A stretch of DNA of 64,000 bases, from positions 3,136,001-3,200,000 of the forward strand of contig OY760937.1 in the NCBI GenBank assembly GCA_963664225.1, in the 5' to 3' direction. Both the position numbers and the translations under genes were made by a program. Source of the DNA: Verrucomicrobiia bacterium. GTDB lineage: Bacteria; Verrucomicrobiota; Verrucomicrobiia; Limisphaerales; UBA1319. Positions 48,908-63,078 of the stretch are shown one piece after another (positions within the stretch are counted from its first letter, which is position 1; every line of letters begins with the position of its first letter). The notes beneath the pieces are model-generated. The model made no database searches, had not been told where the DNA came from, and saw only the letters and a program-made list of their open reading frames with translations.

Positions 48908-48942
48908 AAAAAGCGCGCGGAATTTTGGAAAATCCCGCGCGC
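48906..48942. terminator. Terminator between convergent genes
   Basis: AAAAAAAGCGCGCGGAATTTTGGAAAATCCCGCGCGC hairpin with T tail on the minus strand. Confidence 0.7.
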
Positions 48943-48987
48943 CCAGTAATGCAAAGATCGCCGTCAGCGGCCTGCAACTTCTCCGAT

Positions 48988-49866
48988 TTATTTCGCGTTC
49001 AGAAGCGTCTGGTAAAATTCAAAGGCTTCCTTGGGGGTGCGCTTGTCATGGACCACGGCGCGAATGGCCTTGAGCATGGCAATGGGGTTCCCGGCCTGGA
49101 AGACATTGCGTCCCATATCGACACCAGCAGCGCCCTGTTGGATGGCATTGTAGGCCATCACGAGCGCCTCGTTCTCGGGGAGTTTCTTGCCACCCGCCAC
49201 CACGATCGGCACCGGGCAGGAGGCAGCGACTAGGTCAAATCCAGTGTCGCAAAAATAGGTCTTCACGAAGGTCGCGCCGTTTTCAGCGCAAACACGGCTG
49301 GCCAGGGCCAGATAGCGCGAGTCGCGCACGAGTTCCTTGCCCACGGCGGTGACGCCCAGCGTCGGAATGCCGTATTTATTACCGAGGTCGGCCGTCTTGA
49401 CCATGTTCGAGATGGTTTTCGCCTCGAACTTGCTGCCCACAGCCACCATGACCGCCAGGGCCGAGGCGTTGACGCGAATGGCATCCTCGATATCGAGCAC
49501 GCATTCATCGTTGAGGTCGGTGAGCACGGTGGTTCCCGCCGAATAGCGCAGCGACACCGGCTTGGCGCAGGTGGGCGGCACGATGGAGCGCAGCGCGCCC
49601 CGGGTACACATGATGCAATCGGCATGCTCGATCAGCGGCGTGATCGTGAGGTCCATGCGCTCGAGTCCCGAGGTGGGCCCCATGATGTAGCCGTGGTCGA
49701 AGGCGAGCATCACGGTGTGGCCGGAGGCGGGATTAAAAATCCGGCTCAGGCGGTCTTTCATTCCCCAATCGACATGGTCGAGTCCCTTGAGGAAAAATCC
49801 GTGACGTTGAACAGGAATACCGATGCCGTAATCCGCGGCATCCTTGTTGGAATCATTATCTGCCAT
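48988..49866 (-). CDS. lsrF: LsrF-like thiolase / class I aldolase
   Basis: DWGMKDRLSRIF, MLAFDHGYIMGPT, VKTY, VAGGKKLPE and GAAGVDMGRN motifs. Confidence 0.9.
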   Translation of the reverse strand: MADNDSNKDAADYGIGIPVQRHGFFLKGLDHVDWGMKDRLSRIFNPASGHTVMLAFDHGYIMGPTSGLERMDLTITPLIEHADCIMCTRGALRSIVPPTCAKPVSLRYSAGTTVLTDLNDECVLDIEDAIRVNASALAVMVAVGSKFEAKTISNMVKTADLGNKYGIPTLGVTAVGKELVRDSRYLALASRVCAENGATFVKTYFCDTGFDLVAASCPVPIVVAGGKKLPENEALVMAYNAIQQGAAGVDMGRNVFQAGNPIAMLKAIRAVVHDKRTPKEAFEFYQTLLNAK

Positions 49867-49905: not shown

Positions 49906-50541
49906 TCAGACTGCTTCGCTGAAGCCTTTAAAAATCAGGGAAACGGAGACGGCGCCTGGATCGGGATGGCCGATCACGCGGTCGCCGAGATTACGTGCGC
50001 GGCCGAATTTGGCGCGCATGGCGCGGGTGGCTTCCGCTCCGGCGGCGGCGGCCAGGGCGGCGTGCTCCAGGGCGGACTTGATGCCCTGGGCGGGATCGGC
50101 TGTTTTCAAAGCATCCAGCGCGGGCAGGAAGGCGTCCATCATGGTTTTATCCCCCACGGCGGCCTTGCTCTGCTTTTGAAGTTTGGCCACGCCCGAGGTC
50201 ATCAGGGCGACAAACCCGGCGCAGTCCAGCGTATCCCTGCCGCCGGTGCCTTCGCTCAGTCCCATGAAAAAGGAGCCCAGCAACGGGCCGGTGGATCCCC
50301 CATCGCAGGACATGACATCCCAGGCCACCTTCGAAAAGAATGCTTTCAGGTCGCCGCCCGGAGCTTCATGCGAGGCCTTGTCCACGGCCTCCATGGTGCG
50401 CAGGATCGTGGTTCCGTGGTCGCCATCGCCCACGGCGGCGTCGAGCCGCGAGAGCATTTCGTGATGCGTGCGGATTTGCGCCACGGCGCCCTGGAGCATG
50501 GAGCAGATTCCGGAGTATCCAATGGTATCGGTATCGGTCAT
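49906..50541 (-). CDS. dhaL: Dihydroxyacetone kinase subunit L (DAK2)
   Basis: LDAAVGDGDHG, GGSTGPL, GDKTMMDA, GRA and DPGA motifs. Confidence 0.92.
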   Translation of the reverse strand: MTDTDTIGYSGICSMLQGAVAQIRTHHEMLSRLDAAVGDGDHGTTILRTMEAVDKASHEAPGGDLKAFFSKVAWDVMSCDGGSTGPLLGSFFMGLSEGTGGRDTLDCAGFVALMTSGVAKLQKQSKAAVGDKTMMDAFLPALDALKTADPAQGIKSALEHAALAAAAGAEATRAMRAKFGRARNLGDRVIGHPDPGAVSVSLIFKGFSEAV

Positions 50542-50563: not shown

Positions 50564-50729
50564 AACCCGAAATCCGAAATAGGAACGGCCCATCTGACGC
50601 AATCATTTGGCCATCCATGGTTTGAAACCGGCTGTGGAGTATTGATTTAATACACCTTCGCCGATTGCAAATCATGGCTGTCTCAAAGCATTGCATCATC
50701 TTGACCATTCTTATTTCGGATTACGGGTT
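50564..50729. repeat. 166-bp imperfect palindrome
   Basis: Arms of about 80 bp, AACCCGAAATCCGAAATAGGAACGG... / ...CCATTCTTATTTCGGATTACGGGTT, centred on GTATTGATTTAATAC. Confidence 0.85.
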
Positions 50730-50795
50730 AAGCGGGACGGGGCGGTCCGCCACGAAGGGCAAAGAGCCGTCCCCGTCCCGCAGGTGTTGGGAGTA

Positions 50796-51797
50796 TTATT
50801 TAACCGTCAGCGCGGGTGTGTCGCACGGGGCCTTCCAGTATTTCAATAATTCGTCATCCATCTTCGCGACGAACATCTGGAACCCGGCCATTTCCTGCAC
50901 GGTCAGGATTTCGGCGCATTTGGCGGCGGCAATATGGATGCCCTGGGCATCGAGATGTTTTTTGCAGCCGCGCAGCACAATGTACATTTCCATGAGCGTG
51001 GTCGCGCCGCTGCCATTGATGATGAGCAGCAGACGATCGCCCCGGGCGGCATTGACGGCCATGGCCAGCCGCGAAACCATCATTTCGGCGGTGCGATCCG
51101 CCGTCATGATCTTGCTGGGACCGGTGCCGGCCTCGCCGTGCTGGCCCATGCCGATTTCCATCTCGTCATCGGGCAGGTCGAAAATGGCCTGACCGGTGGA
51201 GGGATGGGTGGCGGTTTTCATGGCGACGGCGAGCGTGGCCATGCTGTTGTTGAAACGTTCCGCAATGGCGTAAACCTCATCCAGACTTTTGCCCGCTTCA
51301 GCCGCCGCGCCGGCAACCTTGAACAAGGGAACGCAGCCGACCAATCCGCGGCGATCCTCGATCGGCGTGTTGGCCCCGGGGGCAATGTCCTCATGGGTGA
51401 GCAGCATCTTAAAGGGAATGCCCTCCTTGGCGGCCATCTCGGCGGCCATGTTCGCGCTCATCACATCGCCCGCGTGGTTGAGCACCACAAAGAGAATGCC
51501 TGCCGGACGGTTGGCCAGGCGCAACGCCTCCAGAACCTTCGGTGGTCCAGGCGCGGCAAAAATATCGCCGACCACGCTGTAATCGAGCATGCCTTCGCCC
51601 ACGAAACCGCTCAGGGCGGGTTCATGACCGGCGCCGCCCAGGGTGACAATGGCCACCTTGTCCCTGGATTTGGGCCGGGCGCGGCAAACGATTTTGTCCG
51701 ACTGAATGCTGATCACATCGCTGTGGGCGATGGCGAATCCCTCGAGCAGCTCGCGGGTGAGTTGCGTGGGATCGTTAATGAATTTTTTCATCGTCAT
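50796..51797 (-). CDS. dhaK: Dihydroxyacetone kinase subunit K (DAK1)
   Basis: MKKFINDP, GGAGHEPA, GD, DRRG and GMGQHGEAG motifs. Confidence 0.92.
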   Translation of the reverse strand: MTMKKFINDPTQLTRELLEGFAIAHSDVISIQSDKIVCRARPKSRDKVAIVTLGGAGHEPALSGFVGEGMLDYSVVGDIFAAPGPPKVLEALRLANRPAGILFVVLNHAGDVMSANMAAEMAAKEGIPFKMLLTHEDIAPGANTPIEDRRGLVGCVPLFKVAGAAAEAGKSLDEVYAIAERFNNSMATLAVAMKTATHPSTGQAIFDLPDDEMEIGMGQHGEAGTGPSKIMTADRTAEMMVSRLAMAVNAARGDRLLLIINGSGATTLMEMYIVLRGCKKHLDAQGIHIAAAKCAEILTVQEMAGFQMFVAKMDDELLKYWKAPCDTPALTVK

Positions 51798-51816
51798 GGC
51801 GGTGTTCTCCCTGGGT

Positions 51817-52137
51817 TTACTTCGTGAACTGCATGTATTCAATCGGTGCGTCGCCGTCCTGAATGAATGCCACGCGCAAGCCGTCCATGGGAACGAACGG
51901 CTCCACAATGACCTTCTTGCCGGCGAGGGCCGCATCCAGATCATCCACGGTATAGGCGACGTGGGCGGTTTTCTTCAGCAGGTAATACATGGGGCTGCCG
52001 GCCTCGAACCGCAGCCACTCGATCTTGTGTTCGCTCTTGTTGGCGTCCGTGACGTAAAGCTTCGCCCCCTCGAGATAAATCTCGTTGGGCTGCTGCTGGG
52101 TGGTTGGGATTCCGATGTGGTGAAATTCCATTTTCAT
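51817..52137 (-). CDS. VOC/glyoxalase-like protein
   Basis: FHHIGIPT, IEWLRF, HVAYTVDDL and VAFI...IEY motifs. Confidence 0.75.
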   Translation of the reverse strand: MKMEFHHIGIPTTQQQPNEIYLEGAKLYVTDANKSEHKIEWLRFEAGSPMYYLLKKTAHVAYTVDDLDAALAGKKVIVEPFVPMDGLRVAFIQDGDAPIEYMQFTK

Positions 52138-52173
52138 ACGGTTATTCCAGTGAATGATGGGTTCGCGGGAGAA

Positions 52174-52860
52174 TTAGAATTTGACGTCGGGATTCGTGAA
52201 CCGGAGTCCGTCGCCATCGTGGAAGCTGCCGTATTCGCTGACGATCGCGCCATTGGGTCCGCCCATCATGAAATGCTTGGCGGTGAGACGATTGAGGGTG
52301 GCGATGTCACCGGGCTGCATTTCGTGGTATTTGGAGACGGTGATGAACTTCTCCTGGCTCTTGGGCAATTTGAATCCGGCAGGCAGAGGGCTGCCTTCTT
52401 CGCCGAGGGTGAAAATGCTGCCGTTGCGGACATGCCAGCTCTCCATCTTGGCCTTGCCCTTGGCGGTGGCCGCATGGGCATGCTCCACGATCATCTGACC
52501 GGGCAGCAGGTAAATCTCATGCGCGAAATAGCCGGCCTCCTGGGAATTAATCCAGAAAATGCCGCCCATGCCCACGTTCGCAAAATCGCCCAGACCAAAA
52601 TCCGTGGCCCACATATTCGTGCGGAGCGATTCGGGCACGGGATAGCCATAAGCGCCCATCATGTCGAAATAGGCCTGCTTGGCCTTCTCCACCTGGAATT
52701 TTCCGTCCTTGTAGAAGTCCTCGTTCTTCATTTTCGCAATTTTCACTTTCTTCACAGTCTTATTATCATTGTCTTTGGCCATGTTATTAATGCACAGCGC
52801 GGATGTCGTAACGACAAATGCGGCGAGCAATAGCAGGCGTCCGAATGTTCCTCGTTTCAT
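52174..52860 (-). CDS. D-lyxose/D-mannose isomerase-like cupin with N-terminal signal peptide
   Basis: TDFGLGDF, GQMIVEHAH...KMES (HxH..K.E), H..MGG and VSEY motifs; RBS AAGGA before ATG 52860. Confidence 0.75.
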   Translation of the reverse strand: MKRGTFGRLLLLAAFVVTTSALCINNMAKDNDNKTVKKVKIAKMKNEDFYKDGKFQVEKAKQAYFDMMGAYGYPVPESLRTNMWATDFGLGDFANVGMGGIFWINSQEAGYFAHEIYLLPGQMIVEHAHAATAKGKAKMESWHVRNGSIFTLGEEGSPLPAGFKLPKSQEKFITVSKYHEMQPGDIATLNRLTAKHFMMGGPNGAIVSEYGSFHDGDGLRFTNPDVKF

Positions 52861-52920
52861 TATATTCCTTTGGTTGTTGTGGTTGTTAAAAAATGGCCGG
52901 TGACCCGGCCTCTCATTGAA

Positions 52921-53853
52921 TCATCGCTGGCAGGGGCCCGGCAAAGGTTTCCCCTCTTTGGAAAGCATTTCCACCGGCATCATGGTGCTGTCGCCCGTGG
53001 GATTCGAATAATGCCAGACGGCTTTTTTCTCGCGGGTGATTTCGACCAATCCGCATCCCGCCCCATCCTGATAGGCCCGGTAACAGCCCATGACCAGGTT
53101 CTCATTGGCCAGCAGGTGCATTCCCGTCAGGTTCTGCAGCTTCAATTCCGGCAGATCGCGACAGGCAAATTCCCACACCTTCCCCCCTTTGGCGTCATAC
53201 TCTGTGACCTGGTCGAGGCTTGTGACAAGGGTGGTGCCTTTGGGCGTGCGCAAGGCGGAGAAGGCCACGCCACCGGCCACTTGCACCTCCCAGACCACAC
53301 GTCCGTCGGGCGTGTATTCCTTCACCTGGCGCAGGCCGGAATGGCAGACGAGATAGTTCCCGTTGTCCAGCTTGCGCGCCATGCGCATGTTATGATGTTC
53401 CCCCAGCTTGGACGGTGTCGTTTGCAGTGTGAAAACGATCTGTCCCGCGGCGTCCAACTCGAGCACGCGACCCGTGGAGTTCTCCCCCACAAGGGTTCTG
53501 CCATTGGCCAGCCTTTGACACGAGAACGCCCCGCCGCCTTTTTGCTCCGCGGGCTTGTATTGAAAAACGGTCTTATGCTCCGGGGTCACTTCGGTCACGG
53601 TCGCCCCGTCGGCGAAGAGCACGTTTCCGTTGGTCAGCATCCAGACGTCATGTGTCAACTGGGCGGGCTGCTGCCAGAGCACCTGGCCCGCCGGATCGAG
53701 GATCAACACCCGGTTATCGCCCGCAGCCAGAATGCGTCCCGAGGGCGAACCGACGATCAGGGGCGTTTCCGCCCGCAAACCGCCCGCACCGATCAGGAGC
53801 GCCAGCAGACCGATGACTGCTGGCGCGTTCGTAAACAGGGATGTGCCGCGCAT
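52921..53853 (-). CDS. Exported beta-propeller protein (PQQ/arylsulfotransferase-like repeats)
   Basis: Signal peptide; repeated LxNGNxL...VxExxxxGxxVW units. Confidence 0.75.
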   Translation of the reverse strand: MRGTSLFTNAPAVIGLLALLIGAGGLRAETPLIVGSPSGRILAAGDNRVLILDPAGQVLWQQPAQLTHDVWMLTNGNVLFADGATVTEVTPEHKTVFQYKPAEQKGGGAFSCQRLANGRTLVGENSTGRVLELDAAGQIVFTLQTTPSKLGEHHNMRMARKLDNGNYLVCHSGLRQVKEYTPDGRVVWEVQVAGGVAFSALRTPKGTTLVTSLDQVTEYDAKGGKVWEFACRDLPELKLQNLTGMHLLANENLVMGCYRAYQDGAGCGLVEITREKKAVWHYSNPTGDSTMMPVEMLSKEGKPLPGPCQR

Positions 53854-53876
53854 GTTGTTTGGGTTTTGAATCCGGG

Positions 53877-56800
53877 TTAATCGGTCACGACGACGCGGAA
53901 CCCGACGTTGTAAACATGCTGCCAGGCCGGATAATCCAGTCGGGCGGAAACGGTGGATTCACGCGGCCTTTCGGACCATGAACCTCCACGCACCACTTTG
54001 GAGACGTCGGAGCCCGCCTTTGATGGCGCCGTATCCTTGTACGGATATGGCCGGTAATCATCCAGCGTCCATTCGGCCACATTGCCGATCATGTTTTGCA
54101 GACCCCACGGATTGGCCTTGTAATGGGAAACCTCGGCGAGCATCAGCACACCGTCGTTGAACCGGGCTTCCTTGGGAACATAGTCCCAGAACTTGTCGGG
54201 GTTGGAGATTGGCTGAGGATCGACCCCGGAGACGGCCAGCTTTGAAATCGAGGCGTCGGAGAGATTCGCAAACGTTGAGAAATCCGAGTTCAGATCCCCA
54301 TAGAACATCGGCGTGGAGGAACCGGTCCGACAGGCCCATTCCCATTGCGCCTCGGTGGGCAGTGTCACCTTCTTGCCGGTGCGCGCGGAGAGCCATTTGC
54401 AGAAGGCCATCGCCTGGTTCCAGTTCACACGAATGACCGGCAGGTTCGGGGCATCCATCAAGTAGCCCGGACGCACCTGATCCTTGTAGTGCTGATCATA
54501 GTATCCGTTGCGATGGTTGGGATCGAACTGCTGATACTGCTGCAGACTGATCTCCGTCGTGGCCATCCAGAAGGGCCTGGCGATTTTCACCGCAGTCATG
54601 GGGAATTCATTGAGCGCGCCATCCACGGCGCCCATCGCGAACTGGCCGGCGGGGATTTTCTTGAGCGCAATCGCCTGGCTGTTGCCCAGGTCCAGGGCCA
54701 TGGCGTTTTCGCCCAGGTCGGCCTGCAATTTTTGGGCGGCGTCGGGACTCAGCGGCCAGCCGTCCACGGATACCGCCGCAGGACGCGCCGCCATCGGCTC
54801 GGGTTTGACAAACTCCACCTTCGCGGTGCTCACTGCGGGAATGGCCTCGATGTCTTCATCGACATTGGAGTACTTCTTTCTGGAATCATAACGCCGTTGC
54901 TCGAAGTTGGAGGGAATTTTCGCAACCTCATGATACGTGCCGTAGGCGGGAACGTTGATGTCGATCCAGGTCAACAGACGGTCCCAGCCCTCGGCGTTCA
55001 ACTTCACATTGTAATGACCCTTGCGCAGCATCTGAATCAAGAGGCTGGTGTTGGCGTGGAATTCCAGAGGCGTTAGAACGTGGTAATCGCCTTCCGGTCC
55101 GTTGCGACGGATGTATGGATGCAGGTTCAGGTAGGAAACCGGCAGATCCGAAATGCCGCCGCTGGTCGGGATGATGCGTGTGTCGGCGAAGTTGGGGCGT
55201 CCTTCCTTGCTGCCGTTATGGCAACCCACGCAATACTGATCCAGCACAGGCTGAACCTCGCGCAGGAAGCTGAAGCCGCGTTTGGGCCCGTGCCATGGCG
55301 TGGGTTCAATCGGCGCTTTGCGGGCGGCAAGGCCCAGCTTTGGCGCGGCGGCGGAGTTCTGGCGCTCATGACAGCCCACGCAGGAAACGACTTCACCGGG
55401 CATTCCCACAAACCAACTGCGCATCAGTTGGAGGGCCTTGCCTTCCTGATCGAGCGGCTGGAGAGCCACCGGCGTGTTGGCCGGGATTTTGAACATGGCC
55501 GAGCCATCGGATTCCACCGGCACGGTGCCGATCATGCGGCGAACGTCCCATCCGCCTTCCATGCCGACAAAATAATGACCGCCCTGGTTGCGATAGGAAT
55601 ACTCGTATTGGAACAGGCGGAGGTTTTTCACGGAACCGCGCGGCACGTCCTTGAGGCCGGGACCGGCGTAAATATCATGCACGTAAACCGTGGCATTCGT
55701 ATCGGCCAGTTTCACCTTGTCTGGAATGACCGGGGGACGGACGGTTTTGCGGAAGGGCAGCGGCTCGAACAAGGCGTAGCCCGGCTGCTCCTTTAGAAGC
55801 AGCATGTTGTCGAAAGTATCCACCAGGTACAGGCCCCATGCAGCCGAGGGAGTCGGCTTGGCGGAAACCAAAAAGTACTTATCGCTCAAGGGATAGGGAT
55901 GCAGGAATTTCGGCCAGGAATCCGCCACCAGCTCGTCCTTGATGACGTCCGGAACCGGTTTGCCGCGACCGGGAATGCGCTGGATCGCGCCGGTGTTTTC
56001 CTGACGGCCTTTGGAGACGTCGAACAACACCATTTCGCCCATGCGCGCCACGCCGTGATGGCCGGAGACGATGCCGACCAGCTTGGTCGAACTGCCCGGC
56101 AGGGGCCGCGCGTAAAAGAGCGAGTTGGGCCAGTAGGAATTGCTGCCGTAAAGCTCCATCTGGCCGGTGCCATCGGGATTCATGGACATCATGATCCGGC
56201 TGAAATAGTGGGCTGAATCGGTGTATTCCCAGCGCAGATACATGATGCGGCCGCTGGGCATCACCACGGGATACCAGTCGTTGTCCTGGTCGAAGCACAA
56301 ACGGCGGATGGTCTTTCCCTCCGCGTCCATCAGGTGAAGATTGGCCACATAATCCGAACCGCCCACGCATGGCACGCCCTGGAAGGTGCTGGTGGAATCG
56401 AACATGATCCGGCCATCGGGCAGATACACGGAATCGTAGCTGTCGATATCGGTTTCATCGGCGGGTGTCACCTGGCGCAGGCCGGTCTTGTCCGCCTTGA
56501 TTTCAAACACCTGCCACTTGTTGTGGGTGCCAATGGAGGAAAACATCAGCTTGTCCGCGTCGAAATTCAGATCGACATCGCCGACATAGTAATTCTTTTC
56601 GGGCTTGTAGAAGGTCTCCAGGGCCGCGCCGCCTTTCTTGTATTCCAAAGTGGCGATTTCGTTTTCCGTCTGGGGATTGATGCTCGAGTTACCCTGCCAA
56701 TTCTGCGGCAGACAGAGGTTGCCCTCGGAGCGTTTGACGAGCAGGACCTTGTCGAAATCCAGCAATGGATTGGCCAGAAGCGCCTGACGCCGAACTTCCT

Positions 56801-57860
56801 TGAAGCTGGAAAGGGCGGCCAGGGACTTGTTTTCCCCATTTTCGAGCCCGGCCTTGATGGTCGGCAGATCTTTTTCAAAGGCCAGCACCGCCTTCAAGGA
56901 TTCGGGTCCGCCGACGTACTTGCCGGGGAACGAGGCGTTGAGGTCTTCAACCGCCAGGCGCAGCGCCGTCAGGTCCAGCCCGGCCAACTCAGCCCGGGCT
57001 TGTTCAAATGTGGTCGCCTGCCCGGCCAGCGAAAGCACGAGCTGGATCCACTCGGGGCTGGTGGGGGCCGTTTTGGCCTGAACCAATGCCGCGAGTTTCT
57101 CACGATCGGCTGTGGCGTCCTTGAGATTCTTCAGCAAAGCCTCCGCCGCCTGCTGCTCGATCTGGGTGTTTTCCGGATGCGCGAACCACTGTTCCGCATT
57201 CACATACTTCGAGAAAAGGCCCGATGGCCCCGGAAAATTATGCGCCACAGACCCAATGGCGCCCACCGTCGAGGCGTCCGTGCTAAAGTAAATGCCGGAA
57301 TCGCCGGTGCGATTGAAGATTTTAACCAGGACCGTGTTGGTGCCTTCGTGCAATTTGGCCTGGATCACGTCCGCGTCCGGGGTGGTTCCGCGTGGAACGT
57401 CATTGGACAAAAGTTTTTCACCGTTCACCCAGCATTCCACGCCGTCGTCGCTGCCCAGCCCGATTTTCAGCGGACGCGCCTCTTTGACGGTAATGGTGCG
57501 GTAAAAGTAGTTGGCCGTGGACGCTCCCGCCTGGAGCGAATGCACCACGCCATCGGGAATCTCGACCGCCTTCCAGACGGGCTTGTCGTTTTTAACCGCC
57601 TTCAGGTCAACGCCTTGCTCGGGAAACAACGCATCGGAAAACGACTGCGCTTTCAATCCCCCCGTTGTGACCCACGGGGATTCGACCAGGTCGGGTCCGG
57701 ACTGCAGCGCCGCGCGCCGGGCCAGCATCGCCGCCGCCCAATCGCCGCTTTCAGCCGCCACGGCCATCCATGCCGATCCGATCAGCAGGCCCGCTGCCGC
57801 CAATGTCCCCAGCCTTCTCCCTGCTCCACAACCCGCGATACCATTAATCAGTGATTTCAT
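53877..57860 (-). CDS. Exported hydrazine synthase alpha-like c-type haem protein with C-terminal FGE/SUMF1 domain
   Basis: Signal peptide; TolB-like propeller (YLPDGRIMF, RWEY, NPDGT); GTVPVESDGSA..PA..MRSW..PGE..SCVGCHE; second CVGCH; FGE motifs LPTEAQWEWACR, GNVAEW, RGGSW and GFRV. Confidence 0.85.
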   Translation of the reverse strand: MKSLINGIAGCGAGRRLGTLAAAGLLIGSAWMAVAAESGDWAAAMLARRAALQSGPDLVESPWVTTGGLKAQSFSDALFPEQGVDLKAVKNDKPVWKAVEIPDGVVHSLQAGASTANYFYRTITVKEARPLKIGLGSDDGVECWVNGEKLLSNDVPRGTTPDADVIQAKLHEGTNTVLVKIFNRTGDSGIYFSTDASTVGAIGSVAHNFPGPSGLFSKYVNAEQWFAHPENTQIEQQAAEALLKNLKDATADREKLAALVQAKTAPTSPEWIQLVLSLAGQATTFEQARAELAGLDLTALRLAVEDLNASFPGKYVGGPESLKAVLAFEKDLPTIKAGLENGENKSLAALSSFKEVRRQALLANPLLDFDKVLLVKRSEGNLCLPQNWQGNSSINPQTENEIATLEYKKGGAALETFYKPEKNYYVGDVDLNFDADKLMFSSIGTHNKWQVFEIKADKTGLRQVTPADETDIDSYDSVYLPDGRIMFDSTSTFQGVPCVGGSDYVANLHLMDAEGKTIRRLCFDQDNDWYPVVMPSGRIMYLRWEYTDSAHYFSRIMMSMNPDGTGQMELYGSNSYWPNSLFYARPLPGSSTKLVGIVSGHHGVARMGEMVLFDVSKGRQENTGAIQRIPGRGKPVPDVIKDELVADSWPKFLHPYPLSDKYFLVSAKPTPSAAWGLYLVDTFDNMLLLKEQPGYALFEPLPFRKTVRPPVIPDKVKLADTNATVYVHDIYAGPGLKDVPRGSVKNLRLFQYEYSYRNQGGHYFVGMEGGWDVRRMIGTVPVESDGSAMFKIPANTPVALQPLDQEGKALQLMRSWFVGMPGEVVSCVGCHERQNSAAAPKLGLAARKAPIEPTPWHGPKRGFSFLREVQPVLDQYCVGCHNGSKEGRPNFADTRIIPTSGGISDLPVSYLNLHPYIRRNGPEGDYHVLTPLEFHANTSLLIQMLRKGHYNVKLNAEGWDRLLTWIDINVPAYGTYHEVAKIPSNFEQRRYDSRKKYSNVDEDIEAIPAVSTAKVEFVKPEPMAARPAAVSVDGWPLSPDAAQKLQADLGENAMALDLGNSQAIALKKIPAGQFAMGAVDGALNEFPMTAVKIARPFWMATTEISLQQYQQFDPNHRNGYYDQHYKDQVRPGYLMDAPNLPVIRVNWNQAMAFCKWLSARTGKKVTLPTEAQWEWACRTGSSTPMFYGDLNSDFSTFANLSDASISKLAVSGVDPQPISNPDKFWDYVPKEARFNDGVLMLAEVSHYKANPWGLQNMIGNVAEWTLDDYRPYPYKDTAPSKAGSDVSKVVRGGSWSERPRESTVSARLDYPAWQHVYNVGFRVVVTD

Positions 57861-58711
57861 GCGTCATCTGTTCCCGTTTTAAGTTGTTTTTGACCGTTGG
57901 AGTCCAACAGCCCATATCCCAGCCGTCCGGAAATTATTCTGGCGTGTTCCATGACCGTCGCGCCCACCCTGGCCAGATCCTCCAGGCGCATGCGTTCCAT
58001 CGGTCCCGTCGTCCAGATCGACGCGATGGGATAGCCATGCCGGTTAAAGACCGGCGCGGCCACGCAGTGAATGCCCGCCATTTGCTCGCCCCGGTCCAGG
58101 GCATAGCCCTGCGCCGCCACTTCATTCAATTCATGGATGTAAGTTTGGACGTCGCCAATGGTGCGTTCATTGAATCGTTTGAAAGAAATTTTCTTGAGGA
58201 CGGCCTCGCTCTCGGCGGAGGGCATCCAGGCGAGGATGGCCTTGCCCGGCGCAGCCACGTGCAGCGGCAGGCGCGCGCCCAGATCGACCGAGAATTTAAA
58301 GGGATGAGACCCCAGCACCTGCCCCAGCACCACCAGTTCGCTTTCGACAATGGTGCCAATAAGGACCGTTTCCCTGAGTTGGTCGCGCAGTTTCTTGAGG
58401 ATATCCACGGAGAGGGACATCAGGTCCTCCTCGGCAAGTGTCCGGCTGCCCATGGCCACCAGCTTGCGGCTCAGGCGCAGGGTCTTGGTTTCCTCGTCGC
58501 GCACCAGGTAGCCATATTCGACGAGGGTCATGGCAATGCGGTAAACACTGGTCTTGGCGCAATGCAGGAGGGCGGCGATTTCGGATTGCTGGAGGCCATC
58601 CGGGTAATCGAGCAAAAGCTCCATGAGCTTGAGGCCGCGCTCGAGATTGGGGACCTTATAACGGGATGCGGGCTCTTTATTGACTGGTTTTATGAGAGAC
58701 AGGGCGCGCAT
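57857..58711 (-). CDS. IclR family transcriptional regulator
   Basis: VPNLERGLKL HTH; LRETV, APGKAILA and GYALDRGE..GIHCVAAPV motifs. Confidence 0.93.
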   Translation of the reverse strand: MRALSLIKPVNKEPASRYKVPNLERGLKLMELLLDYPDGLQQSEIAALLHCAKTSVYRIAMTLVEYGYLVRDEETKTLRLSRKLVAMGSRTLAEEDLMSLSVDILKKLRDQLRETVLIGTIVESELVVLGQVLGSHPFKFSVDLGARLPLHVAAPGKAILAWMPSAESEAVLKKISFKRFNERTIGDVQTYIHELNEVAAQGYALDRGEQMAGIHCVAAPVFNRHGYPIASIWTTGPMERMRLEDLARVGATVMEHARIISGRLGYGLLDSNGQKQLKTGTDDA

Positions 58712-58712
58712 T

Positions 58713-58748
58713 AGTTCACTGGTAAAAAATAGTTTTGCCAGTGAAACT
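58713..58748. promoter_or_regulatory. Inverted repeat, candidate IclR operator
   Basis: TTCACTGG-TAAAA-AATAG-TTTTG-CCAGTGAA in the divergent promoter region; minus-strand TTGACA at 58767-72; extra CCAGTGA half-site near 58780. Confidence 0.55.
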
Positions 58749-58883
58749 GAATTGCCCTACGTTTTCTGTCAAGCGTGTTCCAGTGATTCTGCGCAAAAAT
58801 TGTTTTTTTGCCGCGTGAATCGAATCCTCTCGCGATTCGTCCTCTCATGAGGCACCATGACCGCTCACAACATTCATTGAATT

Positions 58884-60785
58884 ATGCGATTGCCCGCTTT
58901 GCAAAAGCTCCATTGGAGCCTGTTGTTCATCGCCATTTTGGCGATTCAAAAGGTTGACTCGGCGGTTGACTCCTCCGCAAAAACCGGCCCGGCGGACTGG
59001 AACGCGCCGGTGGCGCTGGCTGCGGGACCCGGTGGCGGCGAGCTTTTTGTGGCCTGCGCAAAGGCCAGTCGTGTGAGCGTGCTGGAAACCAGGGGATTCA
59101 CGGAGACGCGCTCAATCGCCCTTCCTGGGAATCCCTCCGGCCTGGCGCTATCCACGGATGGCAAAACGCTTTACGTCACCTGCTCGGGACCGGTGAGCGA
59201 GCTGGTGGTCATCGATGTTTCCGCCAATAAAATCCTGCGCGCCATCAAGGTAGGGCATACGGCGCAAAGCCCGGTGATTGCGCCCGACGGCGCTCTCGTT
59301 TATGTGTGCAACCGCTTTAATAACAGCGTTTCTGTGGTCGATCCCGCTGCGGGAAAGGAGCTTGCGCGCATTCCCGTGGAACGGGAACCGGTGTCGGCAG
59401 CGGTCACGCCGGATGGCAAATACCTCCTGGTCGCCAATCACCTGCATAATGGACGCTCGGACGAGGGAGTGGTGGCGGCCAAGATCAGCATCATCGACAC
59501 GGCCACCCGCAAGGTGACGAAGGAGCTGCAGTTGCCCAACGGCAGCGGTTTGCTGCATGACATCCGGATTTCGCCCGATGGCCATTATGCCTGCGTGGCG
59601 CATGTGCTGGCGCATTATCAGCTTCCCACCACGCAGCTCGAACGCGGCTGGATGAACAGCAATGCGATGACGCTGATCGATTTGTCGAACCTGACTCTCG
59701 TGAATACGGTGCTGCTGGATAATGTGGACAGCGGCGCGGCCAATCCCTGGGCGGTTGGCTGGTTGGCCGACGGCAAGACGTTGTTTGTGACGCACGCGGG
59801 AACGCATGAGCTGAGCCTCATCGATTTCCCGGCGGTGCTGGCCAAGCTGGCGAAACTGCCTGAGGCGCTGGTGAATCAGGATGCCGTGCAGGATGGGGAG
59901 GTTTCGCGAATCCAGTCCGATGTGCCCTCGGATCTGTCCTTCCTGGCGGGCGTGAGAATCCGGGTGCCGCTCAAGGGCAAAGGGGCGCGCTCGGCGGTGG
60001 TTTGCGGGGACCGCATCGTGGTGGCGGATTATTTTACCGATACGCTCGAAAGCATCGATCCCCGGAAGGACCAGGCGACGAGTCTTGTTCAATATCCGCT
60101 GGGAACCGGTCAGGCCATGTCGATCACCCGCAAGGGGGAATCGCTGTTCAACGATGCCACGCTCTGTTTTCAAGGCTGGCAGACGTGCGCCAGTTGCCAC
60201 ACGGACGATGCGCGCACGGACGCGCTGAACTGGGATTTGATCAACGACGGCATTGGCAATCCCAAGAACAGCAAGAGTCTGCTCTACTCGCACGCGACCC
60301 CGCCGGTGATGAGTTTGGGCATCCGCGAAAATGCCGAGGCCGCGGTGCGTTCCGGCATCCGCTATATTCAATTCACCACGCAGCCCGCCGAAGTTCCCGA
60401 GGCCATGGATGCCTGGCTGAAAACGATCAAAGCCACACCCAGCCCGCATCTTGAGAATGGTCATCTCTCCGCAGCGGCCCAGCGCGGGCAAAAAGTGTTC
60501 GAGAGCACTGAGGCCCGATGCGCCACCTGTCATAAGGGGACCTACATGACCGATCTGCAGCATCATGAAGTGGGCACGGCCTGCGCCACGGATAAACCGG
60601 GCGAACCGTTCGATACGCCCACGCTGCTGGAAATCTGGCGCACGGCTCCCTACCTGCATGATGGTTCCGCCGTCACGCTGCGGGAGATTTTGACTACGAA
60701 GAATCCCCAGGACCGCCATGGCCGGACTTCGCACCTGACACCCAAGCAGATCGACGATCTGGTGGAATACCTGCTCTCACTCTGA
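58884..60785 (+). CDS. YVTN beta-propeller fused to di-haem cytochrome c peroxidase/MauG-like domain
   Basis: Propeller repeats (LALSTDGKTLYVT, PDG..YVCN); CASCH and CATCH haem motifs; TPTL...TAPYLHDGS. Confidence 0.88.
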   Translation: MRLPALQKLHWSLLFIAILAIQKVDSAVDSSAKTGPADWNAPVALAAGPGGGELFVACAKASRVSVLETRGFTETRSIALPGNPSGLALSTDGKTLYVTCSGPVSELVVIDVSANKILRAIKVGHTAQSPVIAPDGALVYVCNRFNNSVSVVDPAAGKELARIPVEREPVSAAVTPDGKYLLVANHLHNGRSDEGVVAAKISIIDTATRKVTKELQLPNGSGLLHDIRISPDGHYACVAHVLAHYQLPTTQLERGWMNSNAMTLIDLSNLTLVNTVLLDNVDSGAANPWAVGWLADGKTLFVTHAGTHELSLIDFPAVLAKLAKLPEALVNQDAVQDGEVSRIQSDVPSDLSFLAGVRIRVPLKGKGARSAVVCGDRIVVADYFTDTLESIDPRKDQATSLVQYPLGTGQAMSITRKGESLFNDATLCFQGWQTCASCHTDDARTDALNWDLINDGIGNPKNSKSLLYSHATPPVMSLGIRENAEAAVRSGIRYIQFTTQPAEVPEAMDAWLKTIKATPSPHLENGHLSAAAQRGQKVFESTEARCATCHKGTYMTDLQHHEVGTACATDKPGEPFDTPTLLEIWRTAPYLHDGSAVTLREILTTKNPQDRHGRTSHLTPKQIDDLVEYLLSL

Positions 60786-60818
60786 AGATCCGCCGCGCCC
60801 GGGAGCGGTCCGTTGACC

Positions 60819-61487
60819 ATGCCAAACGCGATTCCAACTCCAGCCCCCACGCTGGTCTGCTTTGCCGTGCCCGAGGAGGCCCGGCCGTTCCAGAGGCTTC
60901 TGGGTTTGGGTCAGGCTCAAAGCCCTGCCGTACGCGTTGCCGTCTCGGGAATGGGTCGTCGGAATGCGCAGGCGATGATCGACGCGGAATTCAAAAAAGA
61001 ACGCCCCGGCCTGGTCCTGACCTGCGGTTACGCCGGGGCCTTGAATCCGGAGCTTGCCTTGGGTCAGATCGTTTTCTACGCGGATTCAAAAGTGCCGAAT
61101 GCCTCGCGCCTCGAAGCCTTGGGCGGGCGCGCCGTCCGGTTTCTGCACTCGGATACAATCGTGGTTACTGCGACCGATAAGGCACGGCTGCGCGCGGAAT
61201 CTGGTGCGGACGCGGTGGAGATGGAGTCCTCGATCATCCGCGCCGCGTGTCGCGATCAGGGCATTCCCAGCGCGACGGTGCGCGTCATTTCAGACACGGC
61301 CCTGGAGGACATGCCGCTGGACTTCAACGCCCTGCTGACCCCGGACCTGAAAATGAATTACCTGCGGTTGAGCGGGATGATTCTGAGTCATCCGCAGCGC
61401 ATTCCCGCGTTGTGGAAGTTCGGCAAGGAAACACGGAAGGCGGCGGAGGCCCTGGGGAATTTTCTGGTGAGGTTTATTGGAGCGTGA
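60819..61487 (+). CDS. Nucleoside phosphorylase family protein (PNP_UDP_1, HpnG-like)
   Basis: FAVPEE, SGMG, GYAGAL, AVEMES and VRVISD motifs. Confidence 0.8.
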   Translation: MPNAIPTPAPTLVCFAVPEEARPFQRLLGLGQAQSPAVRVAVSGMGRRNAQAMIDAEFKKERPGLVLTCGYAGALNPELALGQIVFYADSKVPNASRLEALGGRAVRFLHSDTIVVTATDKARLRAESGADAVEMESSIIRAACRDQGIPSATVRVISDTALEDMPLDFNALLTPDLKMNYLRLSGMILSHPQRIPALWKFGKETRKAAEALGNFLVRFIGA

Positions 61488-61647
61488 CGGAGGCGTTGTG
61501 GGGGAGGCGGGGAAATAACCACAGAGGCAAAGAGGCACGGAGAGACAAAGAACGGGTTATAAACATGGATAGACAGGATGGGCAGATTTTTAACCACGGA
61601 TTAGACGGATGGCACGGATAGGGACTTTAATTTCGAGACGGGATTAT

Positions 61648-63078
61648 TTACTCAGCGTATTCGAACCTCAAATCCAAAGTCACGGCTACTGGCTGTTGGA
61701 GATCCGATTTCTCTATGGCTTCAAAGAATTTGTAGATCAATGCGACCGCTGACGAGTCCGATAATAAATGCGTTTGAATCAACTTTAGGACGTAGGGAAC
61801 GCCGTAAGCCCTAAGTTCTGTGTCTCCCATTCTTTTAATAATCTGCAACTCTCCATTGATACCAGCTTCGATTTCGATTCCGCCGCGACGAAGGTCATCA
61901 ATTAAAAATACCGGGTTGTAGAGTGTCATTACGGCGAATTCCCTAAACAGCAAGGCTTCTATGACTTCAGCCTCCATCGGCCACCAAAAAAGCGGCCTCA
62001 TCCCCAGCAGCAAACTGTAGCGGCCGTTTGTAGGATATGGCAGCCAATCGAATCTAGGTCTGTAGTCTTTTAGAGAACGGTCCGTTATTCTGCGAATAAA
62101 TTGCGTGTTGTATAAGCGATCAACCACTCGTTTCTTTGACAACTTTGAGGTTAGGCGTGAATAAAGCGTATTTCCCTTGAGCCTAATCCCGACGAGGAGC
62201 AACCCTCTGTCAGCTTTGATCGAACCAATGGCTACCCGGACAGTTTGTCGGTAAAGATCGGCAACTTTTGAATGGAGGTAATCAGCCCCCATTTGCACAG
62301 GTGCGACTCCACTATTGAAGACAAGAGGCTTGAGTGCATCCTGAATCCCAACAATTTGGCGCTTGAGCCGCTCGAGCATCTGTGGCGGTAACGGCTGATA
62401 ACTGTGCTGCGTGGTCTGGTCTGAAGCTGTTTTGGGTAACCGCGATTTATTAAGCTTCGGCCCAACTAAATTTATGGTGACGACCAGCTCACTATCACCT
62501 ACAGCGCGGGTCTTGAGTTCCCCAATGCCAGCAACTATTCCTTCCGATAGATCGAAGAGGCTCACATCACCAATACGTAAAAATGTGGTAATTGAGTGGG
62601 CCAAAACAAAGTAATCCCCAAACATCGGGCATCCCCGAATAAAATGAATTTCGCCTCTACCGCCAATTCCAGTTGGTAGATGAGGATTTGCTTCGTGATT
62701 AGCGTGGTTCCGAAGCAACTCGTGTTCGTTTCGGTAAAATATCCACGCAAAAGAGTCTCCCATTACTTTACCCACATCCATAGCTTTGGTAATGAGTTTT
62801 CTATAACCACTGAGAATGTGAAGTCGATAACCAAACCATTTCTGATTCAAACCTGATTTGCGCGATATCAAATCTCTTTCCTCCTCACAAACTTCTTTGT
62901 AGAGCATCTCAAGGAAATATAGAGTGTTTCCGAGAGTTGGTTGAAAAGTGATGACAGCAACAAACACCTCTGCTTTAATGTCCACGCACCTGCGAATCGT
63001 TAACAATTTCAACCAACAATCTTTGAACGATTGTTCAGCCTCATCGAGCGCACCCTCTATTTGTTTCTGAGTTAGCAT
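61648..63078 (-). CDS. Hypothetical protein, possible PD-(D/E)XK nuclease
   Basis: 476-aa AT-richer ORF containing IGD-x15-ELK; located directly downstream of the MmeI-like gene. Confidence 0.65.
   Translation of the reverse strand: MLTQKQIEGALDEAEQSFKDCWLKLLTIRRCVDIKAEVFVAVITFQPTLGNTLYFLEMLYKEVCEEERDLISRKSGLNQKWFGYRLHILSGYRKLITKAMDVGKVMGDSFAWIFYRNEHELLRNHANHEANPHLPTGIGGRGEIHFIRGCPMFGDYFVLAHSITTFLRIGDVSLFDLSEGIVAGIGELKTRAVGDSELVVTINLVGPKLNKSRLPKTASDQTTQHSYQPLPPQMLERLKRQIVGIQDALKPLVFNSGVAPVQMGADYLHSKVADLYRQTVRVAIGSIKADRGLLLVGIRLKGNTLYSRLTSKLSKKRVVDRLYNTQFIRRITDRSLKDYRPRFDWLPYPTNGRYSLLLGMRPLFWWPMEAEVIEALLFREFAVMTLYNPVFLIDDLRRGGIEIEAGINGELQIIKRMGDTELRAYGVPYVLKLIQTHLLSDSSAVALIYKFFEAIEKSDLQQPVAVTLDLRFEYAE

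Follow-up and report, generated by a model that had tools for sequence, protein, structure and literature searches.

Distant hydrazine synthase homologues encoded beside DhaK, DhaL and LsrF homologues in a Verrucomicrobiia bacterium

What do relatives of hydrazine synthase (HZS) do when they are encoded among genes that look like those of sugar catabolism? The question is raised by a locus within a 64,000-nucleotide stretch of a Verrucomicrobiia bacterium genome (the window, to which all coordinates below refer), where the genes read as a self-contained cluster of approximately 11.9 kb (48911-60785) with an IclR regulator in charge. All genes named in an initial annotation of this DNA were found, by open reading frames and Pfam, where it had placed them, and the domain matches of the cluster genes lie well past chance level. 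Two of the products, which we refer to as A and BC, are true yet distant homologues of HZS alpha and of a fused HZS beta-gamma. As detailed below, we consider it somewhat probable that the two constitute a haem-based redox module in the periplasm whose product enters an Lsr-like route to DHAP and acetyl-CoA. Conserved linkage with genes for a protein resembling sugar isomerases, for a ketose kinase and for a cleavage enzyme of the LsrF type provides a first testable metabolic context for these poorly understood HZS relatives.

Gene A (53877..57860, minus strand) encodes a predicted exported, HZS-alpha-like di-haem protein of 1327 aa, identified from its open reading frame, Pfam, fold and profile matches; for both A and BC, the term "exported" reflects a hydrophobic N-terminus, read by eye, and the export requirement of c-type haem attachment. 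A had been described as a propeller protein with two CxxCH motifs, an HZS-alpha-type middle domain and an FGE fold, and all of these features are present: Pfam detects HZS_alpha at aa 742-832 (E 4.1e-34) and FGE-sulfatase at aa 1069-1324 (E 1.7e-40), and CxxCH occurs just twice, at aa 827 and aa 877. Near the N-terminus, a beta-sandwich-like segment (aa 78-190; 57291..57629, minus strand) gives a weak Glyco_hydro_2_N match (E 0.16). This segment is unconserved among orthologues (alignment A3), recurs in similar form in two further proteins encoded by this genome, and is replaced by NPCBM in the orthologue at locus L175; it would appear to be a variable, sugar-binding-like domain. The remaining domains, likewise on the minus strand, are a TolB-like beta-propeller (aa 401-741; 55638..56660) assigned from the AF2 model and TolB fold matches, in which C498 (core C98) is invariant in 46/46 rows of alignment A1; the HZS_alpha middle domain (55365..55637), terminating in the first CxxCH (aa 827-831; 55368-55382), which aligns with the haem alpha-I motif of 5c2v_A; a second haem domain (aa 833-1000; 54861..55364) aligned to the haem alpha-II region of the same chain, with the second CxxCH (aa 877-881; 55218-55232) and a His949 that is invariant in the alignments; and the FGE/C-type-lectin-fold domain (53889..54656), which matches FGE, PorK and PvdO in the PDB at ~1e-11. 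Elsewhere in the genome, a split operon encodes Rieske, FGE and alpha-like proteins separately, an arrangement that links the FGE domain with both the alpha core and electron transfer.

The structural similarity to HZS on which the initial annotation had staked its interpretation in advance was found for both proteins. The AF2 model of the A core (pLDDT 88.9) has 5c2v_A as its top PDB match in Foldseek (E 1.2e-25, TM 0.65, 735 aligned columns), with TolB as the runner-up at 4.7e-8, covering the propeller alone; a profile built from 46 alpha-like cores (A1) matches 5c2v_A with E 6.8e-41 in three collinear pieces spanning chain residues 84-766 of 782. Gene BC (58884..60785, plus strand) encodes a 633-aa predicted exported HZS-beta/gamma-like fusion, recognized from PDB, NCBIfam, fold and motif matches, and is indeed the propeller plus di-haem CCP/MauG-like protein that had been annotated (Pfam YNCE propeller, CCP_MauG and Cytochrom_C). 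An HZS-beta-like 7-bladed propeller at aa 40-395 is followed by an HZS-gamma/CCP-like di-haem domain at aa 413-633, with CxxCH motifs at aa 435 and 546 (60186-60200 and 60519-60533) and an extra Cys, C428, that is invariant in the family alignment. By sequence, BC matches 5c2v_C (gamma) with E 3.2e-30 and 5c2v_B (beta) with E 4e-28, and by fold it matches 5c2v_B with E 4.6e-29 and TMt 0.86. BC resembles the di-haem CCP/MauG/MbnH proteins in its CCP_MauG score (42.7 bits, cut-off 25.6), its two CxxCH motifs and its conserved C-terminal haem region, but differs from them in being fused to a propeller, in not conserving their Trp position, and in matching HZS gamma (E 3e-30) better than it does any peroxidase (at best E 2e-4).

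The pair shares with Kuenenia stuttgartiensis HZS (PDB 5C2V) the order of the alpha core (a propeller, then a middle and a C-terminal domain bearing the first and second CxxCH, respectively), the combination of a beta-type 7-bladed propeller with a gamma-type di-haem CCP-like domain, a total of four c-type haem motifs, and the proximity of the genes. Nevertheless, A and BC are not a hydrazine synthase and do not perform anammox chemistry, because the defining hydrazine synthase residues are missing. A lacks the Tyr591-type ligand (the context of its first CxxCH is H-E-R-Q-N, without the Tyr) and has Asn574 at the position of alpha-Cys303, and in BC the positions of gamma-His144 and gamma-Cys165 are occupied by Ser477 and Ile495. 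The A core is only 17% identical to the HZS chain in the structural alignment, and the NCBIfam equivalog scores are 42 bits for A against a cut-off of 800 and 178 bits for BC against 1250 (177.7 bits to hydrazine_BC). Here, moreover, beta and gamma are fused, A has additional N-terminal and FGE-fold domains, the A–BC complex is putative, and the context is one of carbohydrate-type catabolism rather than anammox. The cluster contains no nitrogen-cycle gene. The original view of the locus as non-anammox holds.

Non-anammox HZS-like pairs have already been reported: Hägglund et al. (Genome Biol Evol, December 2025; PMC12758564) describe co-localised alpha and fused beta-gamma homologues, in clades I-IV, from PVC bacteria, with loss of key HZS residues. 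Alpha homologues annotated as SUMF1/FGE, 1089 and 1177 aa long, appear in their supplementary tables alongside c-type cytochromes with lengths of 601 and 605 aa. In the portions of the paper available to us no function is proposed for the pairs, and the words sulfatase, dihydroxyacetone and Verrucomicrobia each occur 0 times in the main text. The residue analysis presented there concerns clades I-III, in which the gamma-His144 position is Trp, in contrast to Ser477 of BC; as in clade IV, the window has neither an FG-GAP/CRTAC1 gene nor an ABC binding-protein gene beside the pair (PMC12758564). We infer, without placement in that paper's tree, that A and BC most likely belong to its clade IV. 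The recurrence of the gene layout and the counts of alpha-like/BC proximity given below seem to be new, as does the similarity of the cluster's LsrF to that of E. coli.

The genes that give the pair its metabolic setting follow A on the minus strand. A 310-aa Mal s 1-like propeller protein, predicted to be exported (52921..53853; Pfam Mala_s_1-like/PQQ_2, the former matched by the L175 homologue with E 3.6e-46), precedes a 228-aa predicted exported cupin (52174..52860). The cupin has no Pfam match and is D-lyxose-ketol-isomerase-like according to ESM Atlas clusters (score 0.97), on which that name is automatic; its homologues carry twin-arginine signals. Next come a 106-aa VOC/glyoxalase-fold-like protein (51817..52137) with a weak, non-significant Glyoxalase_4 match (E 0.049), the DhaK substrate-binding subunit of a kinase (50796..51797; Dak1 E 1.2e-102), the nucleotide-binding subunit DhaL (49906..50541; Dak2 E 1e-45, TIGR02365 147 bits with a cut-off of 138.3), and an LsrF-type class I aldolase-fold thiolase (48988..49866; NF006081 446 bits with a cut-off of 297). 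The DhaK start is probably Met50 of a longer open reading frame (50796-51944), in which NCBIfam alignments begin at residue 52. In the E. coli Lsr route, AI-2 is processed by the kinase LsrK, the isomerase LsrG and the thiolase LsrF to DHAP and acetyl-CoA. The LsrF homologue here matches E. coli LsrF (3gkf) over its full length (E 4.1e-106, aa 1-286), passing the NCBIfam equivalog cut-off, and a logic of kinase, isomerase and LsrF would be common to both systems. Unlike the E. coli system, the kinase is DhaK/DhaL rather than LsrK-type, the VOC-like protein and the exported cupin stand in place of LsrG, which is not in the cluster, and there is no Lsr transporter, nor any other transporter gene, within the cluster. 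LuxS is absent from this genome (96% complete).

Of 80 loci centred on BC, 38, from several phyla, have an alpha-like gene no further than ~3.4 kb away, and in 36 of the 38 the two genes share a strand (gap median ~1 kb, maximum 3.4 kb); the fraction is 22/42 where at least 4 kb is available on both sides and 14/31 where at least 9 kb is. By way of reference, the 5.78 Mb of this genome contain 4 alpha-like genes. FGE-fused orthologues of A (at least 43% identity) occur at 21 of the 80. The co-occurrence with each other and with sugar genes that had been proposed is thus apparent, the latter at lower frequency: cupin at 9 BC loci, DhaL at 6, DhaK at 5 and LsrF at 4, under the labels Planctomycetota, Hydrogenedentes and Nitrospirota. 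A metagenome scan centred on the cupin (n=80) found VOC at 62 loci, in each case following the cupin, DhaK at 57, LsrF at 38, the FGE part of A at 27, the propeller between A and cupin at 23, and BC at 11; among the 27 loci flanked by 3 kb or more in each direction, A is present at 18, BC at 10, DhaK at 22 and LsrF at 20. The recurring layout is iclR, A, propeller, periplasmic cupin, VOC, dhaK, dhaL and lsrF, with BC close by; the set stays together in at least three distinct gene orders, and at L175 all ten components are co-directional. Dereplication at 80% identity gives 24 cupin clusters, with A near 4, BC near 3, DhaK near 15 and LsrF near 13, counts that are lower bounds, as many contigs are just 1-2 kb. 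A and BC do not accompany the Lsr-like core everywhere. FGE-fused alpha proteins form a clade with 100/100 support (19/19 rows), and within the A family a 7-row "Lsr-linked" subclade reaches only 67/88.

The reading that we favour would then run as follows. A and BC would form a periplasmic four-haem redox module, with the sugar-binding-like N-terminal domain and FGE-fold domain of A holding a carbohydrate-derived substrate, and the exported propeller and lyxose-isomerase-like cupin acting alongside. The product would be imported and phosphorylated by DhaKL at its hydroxy-ketone end, perhaps rearranged by the small VOC protein, and cleaved by LsrF to DHAP and acetyl-CoA, as the Lsr route does with its AI-2 precursor. 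Any direction assigned to the redox step would be conjectural, as is the substrate, for which we suggest a 1-deoxy or 5-deoxy C5 hydroxy-diketone, or a small ketose.

Since alpha-like genes outnumber BC and each family is found without the other, an obligate alpha/beta-gamma complex is not the sole reading. One complete 6.5-Mb genome has BC-like genes and no HZS_alpha match, and at two loci (L049 and L064) BC accompanies the cupin where an alpha-like gene is missing; both observations count against the reading that we favour. BC might instead be a shared MauG/MbnH-like di-haem enzyme or general redox partner that matures (oxidatively modifies) many alpha-like proteins or exchanges electrons with them, A being one neighbouring client. 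The ratio of alpha-like genes to BC is 4 to 1 in this genome, and other genomes give 19 HZS_alpha to 3 BC matches, 109 to ~10, and 12 to 1, although match numbers are not exact copy numbers; a single BC often has two or three distinct alpha-like neighbours. In its tree BC sorts by phylum, with cupin-linked members scattered across it (5 changes), whereas the FGE-fused alpha clade is phylum-mixed; the MbnH, MauG and MauG-like models of NCBIfam match BC below threshold; and each family has an invariant extra cysteine, C498 in the alpha-like proteins and C428 in BC. We nevertheless regard a shared BC as rather unlikely. The best similarity of BC is to stoichiometric subunits, namely HZS beta and gamma, the conserved Trp of CCP/MauG (Trp per PMC12758564) is replaced by Ser477, with Met476 adjoining, and at L049 and L064 BC occurs with the cupin but lacks an alpha-like neighbour.

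Two further readings take one part of the homology at face value. The initial annotation was right about the HZS-like fold and gene co-occurrence, but the N-N/N-O chemistry that it proposed is disfavoured because HZS-specific residues are missing. A broader version, in which the pair reduces NO or hydroxylamine or makes or breaks N-N/N-O bonds, possibly on an amino- or N-oxy-sugar, could draw on homology to both HZS catalytic subunits and on a RidA-fold, FkbO/Hyg5-like gene at 17 of the 80 BC loci (immediately after BC in 14). We consider it very unlikely, given those residues, scores far under the equivalog cut-offs, and the lack of nitrogen-cycle genes in the cluster; the FkbO-like gene, too, is outside this locus, the genome's sole homologue being 30% identical and ~160 kb distant. 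It is still less probable, indeed highly improbable, that A is a periplasmic sulfatase-maturing (formylglycine-generating) enzyme taking electrons from its own haems. The FGE-sulfatase match is strong, the lineages involved are rich in sulfatases, and sulfatase genes occur at 6/80 BC loci; yet FGE catalysis requires two Cys, and across 23 orthologues the FGE domain has no conserved Cys pair, C1154 being the only near-invariant Cys. Its full-domain alignment goes to PorK-type non-enzymatic relatives, and this cluster has no sulfatase. A chance mosaic, with A and BC unrelated to dhaKL, lsrF and the cupin, is quite improbable. The cluster does have an IS110 transposase and a low-GC restriction-modification island in its vicinity, and most dereplicated cupin clusters are without A and BC, but recurrence of the ten-gene set in several orders and under several phylum labels argues against it, as do the iclR–A overlap, the short gaps and the single terminator described next.

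The iclR gene (57857-58711, minus strand) is assigned from Pfam IclR_C (E 1.5e-36) and HTH_IclR, with BhcR and KdgR, both under cut-off, as the nearest NCBIfam models. In the divergent intergenic region between iclR and BC, 4 bp upstream of the iclR start, an inverted repeat read from the sequence (58715..58745; perfect arms of 8 bp, or 13-bp arms with one mismatch) is a candidate operator; among 180 loci, it is present only in this genome's own. The iclR stop codon overlaps the gene A start codon, and the gaps from A to lsrF are short. A consensus scan places a single terminator-like hairpin of 15 pairs followed by a T run directly 3' of lsrF (48911..48944, minus strand), which is probably the end of the iclR-to-lsrF transcription unit.

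The cluster is compact and is organized divergently around a regulator gene. On the minus strand, a tightly packed row of genes runs from 58711 to 48988 with gaps of 19-60 bp, except for 254 bp before dhaL: iclR (57857-58711), whose stop codon overlaps the start codon of gene A; gene A itself (53877-57860), which encodes the di-haem protein resembling the alpha subunit of hydrazine synthase (HZS) and ending in an FGE-fold domain; genes for a 310-aa propeller (52921-53853) and a 228-aa cupin (52174-52860), both predicted to be exported; a 106-aa VOC-like ORF (51817-52137); dhaK (50796 to ~51797); dhaL (49906-50541); and lsrF (48988-49866), with a strong terminator-like hairpin (48944-48911, minus strand) at the end of the row. 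Gene BC (58884-60785, plus strand), encoding an HZS-beta-like propeller fused to an HZS-gamma-like di-haem domain, is divergent from iclR across 172 bp and is separated from gene A by 1 kb, with iclR in between. These coordinates confirm the genes and gene order of the initial annotation (A, iclR, BC, propeller, cupin, VOC, dhaK, dhaL, lsrF). Between the divergent genes iclR and BC, 4 bp ahead of the iclR start codon, lies a 31-bp inverted repeat (58715-58745; arms of 8 bp without mismatch, or of 13 bp with one, around a 5-bp centre), which is a candidate IclR operator; its exact pattern is absent from every related locus searched. A GC-rich hairpin with a T run at 52895-52910 on the minus strand (a consensus match only), in the gap that separates the cupin gene from the gene for the exported propeller, is a possible attenuator inside the operon.

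Judged from sequence and predicted structure, genes A and BC are HZS-like, and the alpha-like and beta-gamma-like architectures initially ascribed to them are borne out by matches to the chains of Kuenenia stuttgartiensis HZS (5c2v; chains A, B, and C are alpha, beta, and gamma). Pfam assigns gene A both HZS_alpha (E 4e-34) and FGE-sulfatase (E 2e-40), and the protein carries exactly two CxxCH motifs, at aa 827 and aa 877. When its core (aa 401-1045) is searched against the PDB as a single sequence, the only match is 5c2v_A, in three collinear pieces (a propeller blade; the middle domain with the first haem motif; the second haem motif). A profile of 46 alpha-like cores likewise finds 5c2v_A in three collinear pieces (E 6.8e-41, chain residues 84-766 of 782), followed by a designed propeller at 4e-8. 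The AF2 model of the core (46-row alignment, pLDDT 88.9, pTM 0.88) has the same chain as its best Foldseek match in the PDB (E 1.2e-25, TM 0.65/0.56, 735 columns, 17% identity), the runner-up being TolB at 4.7e-8, which covers the propeller only. The three-domain architecture of HZS alpha (a propeller, then a middle domain carrying haem alpha-I, then a C-terminal domain carrying haem alpha-II) is thus present in gene A. The N-terminus (aa 37-400) gives only a weak Pfam match, to Glyco_hydro_2_N alone (E 0.16), and a best score of 0.78 in an ESM Atlas search, to clusters without a name. Two rows, L043:1-1665 and L020:7994-9781, were left out of the alignments for an internal stop codon.

For gene BC, the sequence matches in the PDB are HZS gamma (5c2v_C, E 3.2e-30) and HZS beta (5c2v_B, E 4e-28), and the NCBIfam beta-gamma fusion model is matched at E 3e-52. 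The predicted model (pLDDT 82.5) matches the fold of HZS beta (5c2v_B, E 4.6e-29, TMt 0.86). All 50 fold matches listed for this model are propellers, so the gamma-like part is assigned by sequence alone. The 7-bladed propeller and the di-haem CCP-like domain of HZS beta-gamma are both present in BC. A classical peroxidase or MauG was considered for BC and rejected, as the aligned position carries no Trp.

The residues particular to HZS were compared after mapping PDB chain numbers to the published numbering, a mapping that we checked by the mapped chain residues being the expected Cys, His, Cys, and His. Gene A has no haem alpha-I ligand of the Tyr591 type, its first CxxC being followed by H-E-R-Q-N, and it lacks the His587/Cys303 zinc site (chain Cys276, alpha-Cys303, aligns to Asn574). 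In BC, pairwise alignment places Ile495 at gamma-Cys165, the third thioether of haem gamma-I (chain residue 126, Cys), and Ser477 at gamma-His144 (chain residue 105, His). Scores against the NCBIfam HZS models are likewise far below the cut-offs: 42 bits, over aa 771-833 only, for gene A (NF052339, cut-off 800), and 177.7, 114.1, and 107 bits for BC (NF052340/41/42, cut-offs 1250, 625, and 560). On these residues and scores, the A/BC pair is not a hydrazine synthase, and we reject hydrazine synthesis and, in agreement with the initial annotation, anammox metabolism. The second haem of gene A could possibly be bis-His, since the column of chain His745 (alpha-His772, the distal ligand of the bis-His haem alpha-II), occupied by Tyr950 in gene A, holds His in most orthologues, and the residue just ahead of it, His949, is invariant. 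We note separately two unexplained invariant cysteines, neither of which matches the special cysteines of HZS: C498 in the gene A propeller (window ~56367-56369; 46/46 alpha-like cores) and C428 of BC (window ~60165-60167; 43/43 BC proteins), seven residues before the first CxxCH.

The FGE-sulfatase fold of gene A is well above its Pfam threshold (139.7 bits, cut-off 23.3). FGE catalysis requires two Cys near the C-terminus; among 23 orthologues, the domain shows no conserved pair of this kind, and no invariant or nearly invariant Cys follows aa 1154. We therefore reject a formylglycine-generating activity for gene A and read the domain as a binding or scaffold module. Elsewhere in the same genome (L180, C1:1798000-1816000; locus coordinates 7047-11029), one strand encodes, in succession, a Rieske 2Fe-2S protein of 160 aa, an FGE-fold protein of 274 aa that stands alone, and an HZS_alpha protein of 895 aa; as a split counterpart of the gene A fusion, this row links the fusion to electron transfer.

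Hydrazine synthase was, to our knowledge, long believed to be without relatives. The idea of HZS-like pairs outside anammox bacteria is already published: Hägglund et al. (Genome Biol Evol, December 2025; PMC12758564) describe distant alpha and fused beta-gamma homologues, encoded adjacently, in non-anammox Planctomycetota, Desulfobacterota, and other lineages, and sort them into clades I-IV with similar predicted structures and loss of key residues, the sections consulted putting forward no function. The supplementary tables there include alpha homologues annotated as SUMF1/FGE (1089 aa in Anaerohalosphaera lusitana, 1177 aa in Novipirellula artificiosorum), tabulated with c-type cytochromes of ~600 aa, and the A. 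lusitana clusters belong to clade IV, in which the FG-GAP and ABC genes seen in clades I-III are lacking (PMC12758564). As in the published pairs, the alpha-like gene of the window has a fused beta-gamma-like gene close by. Clades I-III have FG-GAP/CRTAC1 and ABC binding-protein genes beside the pair, and none occur in window 44000-64000; these three clades also have Trp at the gamma-His144 position (PMC12758564), where BC has Ser477. By the published description of the clade, the window pair fits clade IV. The main text of that paper makes no mention of sulfatase, dihydroxyacetone, or Verrucomicrobia (PMC12758564). Our literature searches returned no paper naming both LsrF and dihydroxyacetone kinase, none on the function of non-anammox hydrazine synthase homologues, and none joining hydrazine synthase alpha with sulfatase or polysaccharide. 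Within the literature searched, a conserved tie of an HZS-like pair to an Lsr-like catabolic route thus appears not to have been published.

The co-occurrence of an A-like gene with BC extends well beyond the window. Across 80 BC-centred loci from species genomes (L017-L096), an alpha-like gene is found in 38, on the same strand as BC in 36 of these, and its HZS region lies 147-3380 bp away from BC; among loci that extend 4 kb or more to each side the share is 22/42, and among those that extend 9 kb or more it is 14/31. FGE-fused orthologues of gene A occur in 21 of the 80, and a second, shorter alpha-like paralogue (~850-980 aa, ~30% identity) often lies between or beside the fused orthologue and BC. 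Other recurrent neighbours are a RidA-fold gene of the FkbO/Hyg5 type (17/80, directly after BC in 14), GFO/IDH/MocA oxidoreductases (9), and sulfatases (6), along with the cupin (9), DhaL (6), DhaK (5), LsrF (4), and IclR (3). The FkbO/Hyg5-like protein has ~390 aa in two RidA/YjgF-fold parts (e.g., L027:4247-5422; also L175:7986-9137, in addition to the 80 loci); its nearest solved relative is the chorismatase FkbO (4bps, E 3.5e-5), and its sole homologue in the window's genome is 30% identical and lies ~160 kb off.

Loci centred on the cupin give a complementary view. Among 80 metagenome loci, we found VOC in 62, DhaK in 57, LsrF in 38, DhaL in 35, the FGE part of A in 27, the extra propeller in 23, BC in 11, and IclR in 7; where the locus extends 3 kb or more to each side (27 loci), A is present in 18, BC in 10, DhaK in 22, and LsrF in 20. 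The window's exact layout is seen again in L101, L102, L113, L115-L117, L121, and L137. Alternative orders also occur, with BC after lsrF on the same strand (L109 and L124) or with the order dhaL-lsrF-cupin-VOC-dhaK-A (L126-L129 and L134). In the distant locus L175, ten components are co-directional (iclR, BC, FkbO-like, cupin, VOC, dhaK, dhaL, lsrF, a Mal s 1-like propeller, and A), with one additional ORF of no known family and with gene A preceded by an NPCBM domain. These cupin-centred loci are biased toward relatives, and we dereplicated them by single linkage at 80% cupin identity into 24 clusters, many of whose contigs span just 1-2 kb; A is nearby in 4 clusters and BC in 3, versus 15 for DhaK, 13 for LsrF, and 16 for VOC. 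The robust core is therefore cupin-VOC-DhaKL-LsrF, with A and BC attached in a subset of lineages that includes the window's. On architecture and linkage, the initial reading was largely right.

The LsrF of the window passes NF006081 (446.1 bits, cut-off 297) and resembles E. coli LsrF (3gkf) over its full length (E 4.1e-106, aa 1-286). The reaction of E. coli LsrF yields DHAP and acetyl-CoA. The dhaK and dhaL products match Dak1 (E 1e-102) and Dak2 (E 1e-45); DhaL passes its NCBIfam equivalog (147, cut-off 138.3), and DhaK is under the cut-off of TIGR02363 (308, cut-off 406). The genome, which is 96% complete, has no match to EIIA-man (DhaM) and no LuxS. The cupin has no Pfam match up to E 5, and so none to Lyx_isomer (PF07385); its language-model features reach scores of 0.92-0.97 against clusters that carry the automatic name D-lyxose ketol-isomerase, in which PF07385 is found in 12-83% of members. 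Homologues of the cupin bear twin-arginine signals, which argues for a periplasmic family, and the N-terminus of the window copy is Sec- or lipoprotein-like.

Both HZS-like families are large. BC has 4967 proteins at E <= 1e-10 among 8000 scored candidates, the named top matches being mostly from Verrucomicrobia at 55-60% identity over the full length, and the alpha-like core gathers 5683, 3534, and 1447 representative clusters at E <= 1e-3, 1e-10, and 1e-30, respectively. The window's genome (closed, 5.78 Mb) has four HZS_alpha genes and one BC, and five other BC-bearing genomes give 2, 19, 0, 109, and 12 HZS_alpha matches and 2, 3, 3, 10, and 1 BC-like matches, respectively, numbers that are not exact copy numbers. 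Across genomes, these matches mark the alpha-like proteins as a strongly expanded family and BC as a low-copy one, and each may be present where the other is absent. Some genomes labelled Planctomycetota show a huge expansion of HZS_alpha-domain genes, with 109 matches in the 16.2-Mb G004 (the genome of L050) and 19 and 12 in G002 and G005, whereas BC-like matches in these three number only 1-10. We also observed three BC-like genes in tandem on one strand of a Phycisphaerae-labelled contig (L073, ~9947-15740). In Bacteroides thetaiotaomicron, included as a control genome, a protein is also above the Pfam HZS_alpha cut-off, and this well-studied gut bacterium might be a quicker way to learn what alpha-like proteins do.

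Such numbers bear on the main rival to joint action of A and BC, namely that many alpha-like proteins share BC as their MauG-like maturase or redox partner. Copy numbers favour a shared partner, as do the trees: in the maximum-likelihood tree, the 19 FGE-fused cores form a single clade (100/100) with mixed phylum labels, within which gene A groups with six loci also having cupin, kinase, or propeller genes (support only 67/88), and a FastTree phylogeny of 70 BC proteins follows phyla more closely, with the cupin-linked BCs scattered. Opposing a shared partner are the precedent of HZS itself and the missing Trp. Descent from HZS-type subunits and conserved adjacency suggest that A and BC probably act together.

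Acting together, the two exported haem proteins would form a four-haem periplasmic redox module, in which A may bind a carbohydrate-type substrate through its variable N-terminal domain and its FGE-fold domain. The exported propeller and the cupin would work on the same compound, the cupin by keto-enol isomerisation; once the product is imported, DhaKL would phosphorylate its hydroxy-ketone end, the VOC protein may rearrange the phosphorylated product, and LsrF would cleave the result to DHAP and acetyl-CoA. IclR would govern both divergent promoters through the repeat at 58715-58745. A broader reading, which we consider rather unlikely, is that PVC-type HZS-like alpha and beta-gamma proteins constitute a new class of periplasmic haem-c enzymes acting on carbohydrates, in which alpha-like proteins diversified by swapping sugar-binding modules (NPCBM, discoidin, GH2_N-like, FGE fold) and, with a conserved BC, oxidise or rearrange a sugar-derived substrate; the product of the present subfamily would then be a hydroxy-diketone passed through cupin, DhaKL, and LsrF to DHAP and acetyl-CoA, and hydrazine synthase itself would descend from such an ancestor that processed sugars. 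The window is perhaps the first functional handle on the relatives of HZS: a compact cluster under IclR control connects BC and one subfamily of alpha-like proteins with an isomerase-like exported cupin and with a kinase/LsrF route whose end product can be predicted, and thereby makes both the function of these relatives and the origin of HZS directly testable.

The genes flanking the cluster on both sides are unrelated to it. Beyond lsrF, an ABC-F ATPase gene (45890-47977) is immediately preceded by a 1-kb GC dip (to 0.44 over 45000-45999), which follows an IS110-family transposase (DEDD_Tnp_IS110 and Transposase_20) at 43348-44844. Directly after BC, at 60813-61487, lies a PNP_UDP_1 phosphorylase/nucleosidase gene whose nearest model is the hopanoid-associated HpnG, below cut-off; such a gene adjoins BC in 0/80 of the BC-centred loci. 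The stretch from 61648 to 64000 has low GC (0.46-0.51) and contains an ORF of 493 aa that matches no Pfam family, together with an MmeI-type restriction-modification gene that leaves the window, so that its C-terminal part alone is included; the stretch is probably a defence island at the border of the cluster.
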